From Euglena gracilis (lineage: Eukaryota): a stretch of DNA of 64,000 bases. The notes below the pieces were generated by a model. That model had not been told where the DNA came from, searched no databases, and was given only the letters and a program-made list of their open reading frames with translations. The stretch spans positions 31,892,012 through 31,956,011 of the forward strand of contig CP154954.1 of NCBI GenBank assembly GCA_039621445.1. Direction: 5' to 3'. Below are positions 18,001 to 21,000 of this stretch, in pieces; position 1 is the first letter of the stretch; each line of letters opens with the position of its first letter. A program made the position numbers and the translations under genes.

Positions 18001-21000
18001 CTGCTCCTCCACCGGCAGCAGCCGCAGGAACGGCAGCAGCACTGCTTTCCACCACGCCCCGGCGCAACACTGGCTGGCGAGCGGGCGTTTTTTTTCCGTG
18101 CCTGGAGACCCCGCAGCACACAGCGCCATCAGCCAGGGGGGGGGGGGCACTGGGGCGAAAAACAAACCGCGCATCTCGGAAAAGCCACAAAGACAGACCA
18201 GCAGCCGATGCTGTGCTTCTAAAGTGGTAGCGGCACCGAGTTTGGGAGGTTCCAGAATGGCTCATGATGGCCCCAGCAAACCGCAGGGAGGTCGACGAGT
18301 CGGCCAGCCACATGCCCCAAAAGGGAGGACAAAAGAGCGGCGCTGACCCCAACAGACGAGTGGCCAACTCTGAAACCGAGTTGACCCAACCGTCTGCAGC
18401 GCCACGAGCGGGTGGGGGGGGGAGAGGGTAGGGACGCCGGAGCGTCACGCCGCGGCCTGCCCGGGCCAGCGCATCGGCGAAGCCGGCCGCCTCCCCCGCG
18501 TCGCCGCCGTCGCCGGCTGCAACCAGCTGCGCGGTCTGTGCCGCCTTCGACCGGCGGAACGCGGAGAGCAGCAGCTCCGGGAGGTGGTCCCGCAGGCAGG
18601 GGTTTTCTTAAGGACCTCGGGGGGGGGTTCCGCAGGCCGGCTGGGAAAAAGGTGCTGGCTGGACCCCCCCCCCCCAGGCCCTGGGGGTGGGGGCCAGGGG
18701 GGGGGGGCAGGTCCGGCTGGCTGGGAGCTGGACCCGGCGGGTAACCCGAAAATGCCCAACAAAGCCCAAATCCAGCTGGGTTGGCATTTTTCAGCCAAAG
18801 TTTGGAGGGGACAAAACCCAAAACCACCCAAAATGCCGTTTTAAGAGATTTTTAACCCCATTCCCCAAAGTTTTCAGCCCAGTCCGGCTTTACTGGGCTG
18901 GCCCGAACCTTATTTCAGCAGACACCTGGGGGGGGGTACGCAGCCCGGCTGAGAGGTGCTGGCTGGAACAAAAATGCTGGCTGGCTGGACCCCCGGGGGG
19001 GGGCAGGGTCCCCTCCAGCTTAAGAAAACCCCTGCCCGTAGGAACGCATTCCACGTGCTGTCCCGCACGTCCTCTCTGAAAGGGGGCGGGGGGGGGGGCA
19101 GGGGGGCAGGCAGCGCAAACAGTCTCGGAAAGCTGTCACAGTTGGGGGGAGGGGCTAGAAATGGCCAGGGGTTTCTTCTTTGCGGACTTCAGTGCGAGGC
19201 AACCCCAGTAGTGTCCCATACAAACACAATACTGGCGCCGAGCATGCATTCAGAGAGAGGCTTTCAATTACAGCCAAAGTTCATGCAGGAATGGAGATAA
19301 ATGATAAAAAATACAAAATAAAAACTAAATAAAAGAAATGAATCTGCAGCAATTTCGAAAATATGACAATCATTTTGAATCGGTGATGACCTTCATGTGG
19401 AACGAACGGTCACTGGTACCCATCTTTTTCATCTTTTTTTTATATAATCCATTTTCGGACTATAAGCACCTGCCAATGCCTCATCGACAACGCAGCACAC
19501 AACACTGCACAACTCAACACAACACAGCACAACCCAACCCAACCCAACACAATACAGCAGAACACACCACAACACTGCACAACACACCACACCACACCAC
19601 ACCAAACCACACCACCACAACACAACACAACACACCACAGCATAACGCAACAGCCTACCGGGACGAGGTCAGCTCCCAGTCGGCATGCACCGCAAAGCGC
19701 AGCCCGATGTGGCGGACGGGCAGGTACGCGTACAGCCACTGGTCCGGCAGCGCCTCCGCGCCGCGCACCACGGGGCACGCGATGCACAGCGTCGTGGACT
19801 GGTACGCCTCCGACCCCCCGGCCCCGTCGCTGCGCCGCACCTGAGGGCGGACCCGCACAAGGAGGAAACCCGAGAACAGCTCTTCCTGAAACCTGACGAA
19901 ATGCCCAGACGGCGGGAAACCCTGGACTTGTGGAGGGATTGTGGACGGATTTGTGGAGGGACCAGTGGAGTACGGACCAGTGGAGGGGTGGGAGTGGCCA
20001 ACCTCCGAGCACAGATGCTGTCGGAGAGCAGGTTGGGCATGGCGGGGAAATCAATGTGACACACAGGCGCGAGGCAGCTTGGAAATGGTGGGTAAACTAA
20101 CGCACAGGTGTGAGGAAAAGGATTTGAAATAATTCAGCTGGGAGGTTTATCTGTGCCCTGGAAGGTTGAACGGAAACCTCAGGGGTGAGAAAATTTTCCC
20201 TACGAGTGGGGTGCCTTTCAGATGCAACTATGCCAATATAAATTGGCCAGATTTCACTGGATCAAGACCCTCCTGCTGACCCCCCTGACTGGGCAGGCGC
20301 AACCAACACCTGGTGGTCCTTCGGCTGGAGCGGCAGGCTGGAGACAAAGTACTCGTGGCGCTGGGTCTCGACCTCCCCCTCCCCCTCGCCGCGGTGCGTC
20401 AGCACCGCCACGGTCCCCACCGCGTCGGCGGCCGTGCGCCGCAGCGCGGTCCACGCCCCGGCGTCGGCGTCCTGCACCACGATGCACCTGCAGGGGGGAG
20501 GCCGACATGGGACTCAAAGCCTGCTTTCCATGTGGGGGGGGGGGGGCGAGATGCGGCTCCACGTGGCCCAAATACATCCGGAGTTCCGCCCCCTGAGGAC
20601 CTTGCCCGACGATCCATTCGGAAAAGCGGTCGCAGCAGCAGCGGTGGAAGGAAGGGCAACAAATGCATCGGGTTGGGCGTTGATCTCCCACCTGGCAGGA
20701 ATGCCTTCGGGGTATACAATCCCCCGGTCCCCAGAAGCCAGAAAAGACTGGGCTCCGGGCTCTGTGATAAAACTGAATTGGTGGTAATTTGCACGCCCCC
20801 TTCCTCCCCACGCTGCACTTGATCTGTGCACAAAATTGTGATTCTCTTTTGGTGGCTGCTAATTGTCGTTGGGCTTGCGGATGTGCTTTGCAGACAGCTA
20901 CCCGGATCGTATGTCACAAGAACCGTGCATCGCGCACAGCAGGCATCGCAGTGCTGGAGGGAAGAACTCCACATGTAGAAAGGGCACTCCCAGGGAGGGG

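Follow-up and report, generated by a model that had tools for sequence, protein, structure and literature searches.

A 64,000-nucleotide stretch of the Euglena gracilis genome (assembly GCA_039621445.1, contig CP154954.1, forward-strand positions 31,892,012 to 31,956,011; the window hereafter, with its first letter as position 1) carries a Sacsin/NO VEIN-like gene on its minus strand, and a coding exon of this gene is interrupted by a 438-bp element that has the terminal inverted repeats (TIRs) and target-site duplication (TSD) of a MITE, a miniature transposable element with inverted repeats. The borders of the interruption fit the published code of euglenid nonconventional introns exactly, and deletion of the 446 nt delimited by this code restores a conserved motif. 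The reading favoured here, to which a probability of about two in three is given, is that a hAT-like MITE leaves the transcript by excision as a nonconventional intron of the euglenid type.

The host gene was followed with a profile built from 24 homologues, which matched a colinear chain of minus-strand exons (Table 1) with the N-terminal motifs of the Sacsin/NOV family in family order. The homologues carry PF25794 (Sacsin) together with PF13020 or PF27504 (NO VEIN C-terminal/DUF3883 domains), and several are labelled 'Protein NO VEIN C-terminal domain-containing' by their source; with a single exon as query, the Pfam SACS model scored 19 bits, below the cut-off of 32.8. Every exon that could be recognised is open, and no conventional splice site is disrupted. 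Conventional introns occur at 22408->21759 and 19658->19075, and the last 20 nt of both are a C-rich polypyrimidine tract (C 12/T 4 and C 14/T 3, respectively), a trait described as unusual and distinctive in E. gracilis (PMC11170887). Between the first and second exons of the Sacsin domain, the minus-strand intron at 23218-22527 has no good GT/GC-AG solution and is best fitted by a CGG...CCG nonconventional variant, its removal (23218->22526) giving NNEAVGFTAKD. In this fit the spacer is 5 nt long, GGCCG forms a 5-nt direct repeat, and an inverted repeat of ~13 nt is imperfect; one gene thus mixes conventional introns with a best-fitting nonconventional one. By themselves, this mix, the C-rich tracts and the fit to the nonconventional code described below make a Euglena-type genome likely, diplonemids being the main alternative (PMC12621601). 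For the E3-E4 and E4-E5 introns, homology alone gave no resolved junctions. In the protein fragments P0003, P0005 and P0001/P0066, which come from other contigs, the sequence either ends or continues as read-through at one shared point, following ...SSR or ...TNR, which suggests that the conventional-intron position at 19658 is common to relatives; P0006 continues uninterrupted through both this position and the MITE site.

On the plus strand, the left border of the element reads GGTGGT CCCGCAGG followed by CAGGGGTTTTCTTAAG, and the right border reads CTTAAGAAAACCCCTG followed by CCCGTAGG AACGC. The 16-mer CAGGGGTTTTCTTAAG has exactly two mismatch-free sites, one at each end of the element and in opposite orientations, and the flanking 8-bp copies CCCGCAGG and CCCGTAGG are identical at 7/8 positions, the duplicated target being CCT(A/G)CGGG. 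The element is short (<1 kb) and non-coding, its longest internal ATG-initiated open reading frame (ORF) encoding 59 aa, and with a TIR matching at 16/16 positions and a TSD at 7/8 it has the features by which MITEs are recognised; the AT-richness also expected of them (PMC3935182) is lacking, as its GC content is 62.1% compared with 55.5% for the window. GCTGG occurs 13 times on its plus strand, forming internal direct repeats.

This anatomy, which the original prediction had described as an intact 438-bp MITE with a perfect 16-bp TIR, is certain and non-random. When the window was dinucleotide-shuffled 100 times, perfect inverted repeats starting with CAG never reached 16 nt (the longest arm was 14 nt), compared with four of at least 16 nt in the window itself, and inverted repeats of at least 9 nt flanked by a TSD of at least 7/8 numbered one in the window against a shuffle mean of 0.01. 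Window-wide, TSD enrichment around CAG...CTG inverted repeats amounted to nothing beyond the 438-bp element, matches of at least 5/8 flanking 5/47 such repeats and 4/47 at a control offset. Because the TIRs are perfect and the TSD is nearly so, the insertion appears to be young.

In the direction of the gene, the element interrupts the arginine codon C|GG in TTC CTA C|GG GAC, which belongs to the conserved motif W-N-x-x-L-R-D. Deletion of 446 nt (19037-18592) gives SSREDVRDSTWNAFLR-DHLPELLLSAF, that is, SSREDVRDSTWNAFLRDHLPELLLSAF, and the product aligns without gaps to 28 homologues across SSRE-x6-WN-xx-LRD (for example SSREDIHKNSPWNIRLRDAVAEAF, and SSREDVHDCAWNSWLRDCVADTF in P0006). Among these homologues the tryptophan is conserved in 26/28, the asparagine in 28/28, and the arginine and the aspartate in 22/28 each, and in not one of the 28 do extra residues separate arginine from aspartate. 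The alignment bears out the earlier proposal that the element splits the segment following SSRE in NO VEIN-like proteins. The frameshift that had been foreseen on retention is likewise found, 446 not being divisible by three and the insert containing a stop after 31 codons, and the one mismatch between the TSD copies is synonymous as claimed (CTA and CTG both encode leucine); alternatively, it falls in a spacer of the intron code in which sequence is free. An exhaustive protein-collection search with the upstream exon returned six matches, of which the near-identical P0001 and P0066 are fragments ending at the conventional intron.

The code for euglenid nonconventional introns, 5'-N3CDG...CH'GN5-6|R with terminal pairing, was established in E. 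gracilis through knock-in genetics (PMC12501133). As described there, the CAG and CTG motifs are critical, the 5' spacer has an invariable 3 nt, the 3' spacer has 5 nt with 6 tolerated, a purine opens the next exon, and the bases that follow CAG must pair with those that precede CTG, removal of the pairing having abolished function; five synthetic 50-bp introns made of code features alone were spliced (PMC12501133). The minus-strand borders of the interruption, TTCCTAC|GGG CAG GGG... ...CCC CTG CCTGC|GGGACC, agree with every element of this code (spacers, CAG/CTG, purine and pairing), and the E. gracilis consensus of CCAGG at +3 to +7 and CCTG at -9 to -6 (PMC11170887) is represented by GCAGG and CCTG. 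The ends form a terminal duplex of 20 consecutive bp (-44.8 kcal/mol), composed of the 16-nt repeats and 2 nt of each TSD copy, and they are also paired in the minimum-free-energy fold of the whole intron (z = -3.3). Among the candidate junctions of its exon pair, that at 19037-18592 is the only one with 16 perfect pairs from CAG. The junction put forward in the original prediction, C|G...C|G yielding TTCCTAC|GGGACCAC, is identical to the one predicted by the code (PMC12501133), although no intron class had been named. From the borders and the restored motif, excision of these 446 nt from the transcript is predicted.

The code elements coincide with the anatomy of the insertion. The upstream TSD copy supplies the N3 spacer with its last 3 nt, the downstream copy supplies the N5 spacer with its first 5 nt, and each terminal repeat contributes its outermost three bases as CAG or CTG. 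Since 3 + 5 = 8, the length of the TSD, a cut at these borders would remove the element plus exactly one TSD copy and so restore the pre-insertion sequence. In the proposed course of events, a non-autonomous hAT-like MITE would have inserted in a coding exon of the Sacsin/NO VEIN-like gene, duplicating CCT(A/G)CGGG; in the minus-strand pre-mRNA, the terminal repeats would pair over 20 bp and draw the ends together, presenting a signal of 3 nt, CAG ... CTG, 5 nt and a purine; and the nonconventional excision machinery would cleave 3 nt ahead of CAG and 5 nt past CTG, taking out 19037-18592 and restoring WNAFLRDHLPELL. Because the sequence would be restored by excision, the insertion would be harmless. 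Nonconventional introns in E. gracilis are reported to be removed as circular RNA.

Table 1. Features of the interrupted gene, the element and its relative (window coordinates)
Feature	Position	Strand	Remarks
Predicted nonconventional intron, 446 nt	18592..19037	-	GGG CAG ... CTG CCTGC, then exon G; fits the published code
MITE body	18597..19034	.	438 bp between terminal inverted repeats
Left TIR arm, CAGGGGTTTTCTTAAG	18597..18612	+	In minus-strand RNA, outer 3 nt = CTG, intron -8 to -6
Right TIR arm	19019..19034	-	Perfect complement of left arm; in minus-strand RNA, outer 3 nt = CAG, intron +4 to +6
Upstream TSD copy, minus strand CCTACGGG	19035..19042	-	CCTAC kept in exon; GGG (19037-19035) = N3 spacer
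Downstream TSD copy (gene direction), minus strand CCTGCGGG	18589..18596	-	First 5 nt (18596-18592) = N5 spacer; GGG (18591-18589) opens next exon
Exon match	23346-23212	-	Profile 54-96, E = 4e-10
Exon match	22522-22406	-	Profile 95-134, E = 2e-12
Exon match	21762-21652	-	Profile 133-169, E = 5e-10
Exon match	21118-21023	-	Profile 178-210, weak
Exon match	19804-19658	-	Profile 273-323, E = 9e-13
Exon match	19083-19027	-	Profile 321-340, weak
Exon ...LYAYLPVRHIGLRFAVHADWELTSS(R), Sacsin/NOV domain core	19659..19804	-	Ends HADWELTSS(R) at 19659; 19804 is the limit of the match, not a defined 5' end
Conventional intron, 583 nt	19076..19658	-	GTAGGC...TTTCAG; 3' splice site CCCCCTTTCAG
Short exon (R)EDVRDSTWNAFL(R)	19038..19075	-	Opens AGAGGACGTG at 19075; preceded by conventional 3' splice site CCCCCTTTCAG
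Exon continuing (R)DHLPELLLSAFRRSKAAQ	18440..18591	-	18440 is an arbitrary limit of the analysed stretch, not the exon end
Related rearranged copy	9704..10155	.	75-82% identity over ~390 nt; intact TIR pair absent

Transposons of the hAT superfamily are typified by TSDs of 8 bp and by YARNG as their terminal motif, and the TIRs listed for them are 14-16 nt long, some starting CAGGGGT (PMC3014272). The element has an 8-bp TSD, YARNG in the form of CAGGG at both ends and a TIR starting CAGGGGT, and in these features, its 16-nt TIRs and its short non-coding body it resembles hAT MITEs and other non-autonomous hAT elements such as the hAT-N families of Anolis (PMC3014272). It is unlike them in its target, which is not nTCTAGAn, in being GC-rich (62%), in that no transposase partner was found among the window ORFs, and in a removal predicted to be exact and to act on RNA.

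Comparison with euglenid nonconventional introns is closer on the RNA side. Like those of E. gracilis and E. agilis, the predicted intron has no GT-AG, CAG at +4 to +6, CTG at -8 to -6, spacers of 3 and 5 nt, a purine next, paired ends, direct repeats at the junctions that make the intron 'slidable', and conventional introns in the same gene (PMC12501133, PMC11170887, PMC11282704). In most nonconventional introns the pairing of the 10-nt ends amounts to -10 to -2 kcal/mol (PMC11170887); the pairing seen here, with 16-nt perfect repeats and a 20-bp stem, is far longer, and the usual ones also differ in that here the full 8-bp duplication is still readable, the sequence is that of a repeated element and excision is predicted. 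Intron 4 of gapC in E. agilis is a strain-specific, recently gained nonconventional intron with 8-nt direct repeats at its junctions, which its authors explain by double-strand-break repair (PMC4770533); unlike for the 438-bp element, no repeated family or long TIR is reported in the passages of that paper dealing with this intron (PMC4770533).

Other explanations have to accommodate the same borders. A spliceosomal introner like those of Micromonas or dinoflagellates, drawing its GT/GC-AG sites from the element, the duplication or the exon, has precedents: MITE-like introners with TIRs and TSDs make spliceosomal introns on insertion into exons in Micromonas, Aureococcus, Polarella/Symbiodiniaceae and Amoebophrya (PMC11282704), maize Ds is cited as an example of a de novo intron (PMC3935182), and the host gene itself contains conventional introns. 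Because introners use GY-AG sites, they are set apart from the 438-bp element; they splice at GT/GC-AG or, in Amoebophrya, have TSDs of 3-5 nt (PMC11282704), whereas the element has an 8-bp TSD and no GY-AG solution. GT/GC-AG was present at 0/9 of the junctions allowed by the duplication, and of 231 GT/GC-AG combinations nearby, five were in frame and none restored the motif, all five using GC donors and losing or adding residues in the WN..LRD segment; no polypyrimidine tract precedes the 3' end of the element. An introner is thus regarded as highly improbable. Even less credence is given to a chance inverted repeat, or to removal at the level of DNA (programmed elimination) instead of RNA. 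Runs of G or C are abundant in the window and yield spurious inverted repeats, and the ends of hAT-type elements are inherently signals for DNA excision. Against this, hAT excision from DNA leaves footprints without exact restoration, the shuffles never produced a perfect arm of 16 nt, the TIR is not a homopolymer, a related copy exists at 9704-10155, and nothing in the window resembles a ciliate-like genome.

A recent disruptive insertion that is not removed, leaving a young pseudogene copy or allele with exons still undecayed, is judged unlikely, although it is the alternative to which most weight was given. A young age is indicated by the perfect TIRs and nearly perfect TSD, retention would bring a stop after 31 codons, family similarity is weak downstream of the element, and a protein spanning the junction was not found in the collections searched. 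The borders, however, fulfil every tested requirement of the code, which an insertion in random orientation and target need not do; a comparison MITE at 40156-40362 does so on just one of its strands. In addition, the recognisable exons are open, the conventional splice sites are intact, and the sole TSD change would be neutral under the splicing model.

Several points weigh against excision of a hAT-like MITE as a nonconventional intron. Since the perfect TIRs indicate a young insertion, an intact-looking gene is compatible with a recently broken allele. The published code covers 61.2% of nonconventional introns, and its sufficiency was shown on short introns (PMC12501133), compared with a GC-rich one of 446 nt here. 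The target CCT(A/G)CGGG is unlike the nTCTAGAn-type target consensus of hAT elements (PMC3014272). A transposase domain was found in 0/73 ORFs of at least 170 aa outside the gene (101 ORFs of this size, less 28 lying within 17966-23427 or largely overlapping others) and in 0/5 ORFs of a 2-kb candidate element at 28552-30571, and 10 further ORFs gave nothing useful. Because the target differs and no transposase was found in the window, 'hAT-like' is a structural assignment only. No junction-spanning or empty-site protein was detected with the downstream exon as query among 252 candidates of 117-373 aa or two of 30-116 aa. The NO VEIN C-terminal domain (PF13020/PF27504) has no significant match within the window, and may lie beyond it or be absent, and past 18440 the matches to the family profile are weak (E = 10 and 0.12); in view of these weak downstream matches and of a C-terminal domain missing from the window, integrity of the host gene as a whole is not established.

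Excision as a nonconventional intron nevertheless remains the preferred reading, and the locus bears on where euglenid nonconventional introns come from and on the machinery behind their excision. A MITE-like origin was proposed in 2013 from inverted repeats near intron ends (PMC3935182), was repeated in a 2024 review that noted TSD-like repeats (PMC11282704), and was taken up in the discussion of the 2025 genetic study, which calls the origin unclear (PMC12501133). A literature search over article full texts found no paper that links these introns to hAT or names a transposon family or superfamily for them. The MITE-origin hypothesis is already known, and what is new is an unusually clean and legible case of a transposon fitting the code. 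A transposon (16-nt TIRs, 8-bp TSD and a related copy), the conserved codon that it interrupted and a complete splicing code can still be read together here, and because the ends of the element match the nonconventional-intron signal, it provides a concrete example for the transposon-origin idea. The arithmetic by which spacers of 3 and 5 nt add up to the 8-bp TSD that is a hallmark of hAT elements makes this idea testable genome-wide.

A broader and distinctly tentative proposal is that the nonconventional code might be the RNA-level image of hAT-type ends, with CAG and CTG corresponding to the outer bases of YARNG and the spacers being fixed at 3 and 5 nt because they sum to the 8-bp TSD. 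If this were true, any such MITE would be spliceable from insertion onward and exactly erased, hAT-like MITEs would be the ancestors of the whole class of nonconventional introns (~70% of Euglena introns), and reversing hAT insertions would be the task for which the excision machinery evolved or was recruited, the 438-bp element being a living, recognisable example.

The element has one detected relative in the window, at 9704-10155, in which 9704-9939 corresponds to element positions 18600-18795 in reverse and 9938-10155 to 18795-18992 in direct orientation, the ends being degenerate and the left half inverted. The original prediction had called the family dispersed; the related sequence on which it drew does exist, but because it is a single rearranged copy within the window, the wider claim is weakly based. 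A metagenome scan with the two-TIR pattern returned no match. With a single 16-mer the scan returned 119 loci, and because none shared anything further with the element in blastn comparisons, these are taken as chance matches.

Other repeated structures occur in the window. A second MITE-like element of 207 bp, at 40156-40362, has perfect 16-nt terminal repeats, CAGGCTTCTTTTTAAG, which are identical to the repeat of the first element at 12/16 positions, both ending in TTAAG. Its flanks, GGGGGGGG and GGGGTGCT, match at 5/8 positions, the code N3-CAG...CTG-N5|R fits on its plus strand only, and no clear coding context was seen around it. A stretch of 2020 bp at 28552-30571 lies between 12-nt perfect inverted repeats (CAAGCACCTCTG) with a perfect 8-bp direct repeat (GTGACGGG) and may be a further element with an 8-bp TSD; Pfam gave no match for any of the five ORFs inside it. 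The apparent 8-bp TSDs CTCTAGAG and GTTCAATA were rejected as belonging to palindromic repeat arrays. Palindromic units of the form TTCGAGGAGG-CTCTAGAG-CCTCCTCGAA recur at ~32944-32990, ~34560-34600, ~40870-41020 and ~43000-43045 and simulate TIRs and TSDs in a naive scan.

Homopolymer runs of at least 12 nt number 55 in the window, 50 of them of G or C, the longest being C32 (9791-9822) and C26 (11359-11384). Simple repeats include long (CA)n tracts at 8017-8320 and 12492-12789 and a (TTG)n/(TTA)n block at 26334-26541. The sole domain found among the 73 ORFs searched for transposases was copper amine oxidase N2, matched by the ORF at 34361-35479 (+) and by two others (best E = 1.2e-6), which suggests a second, unrelated gene in the window. 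An Rfam search of the whole window returned no families, and a tRNA-Gly (CCC) gene lies on the minus strand at 56236-56305.

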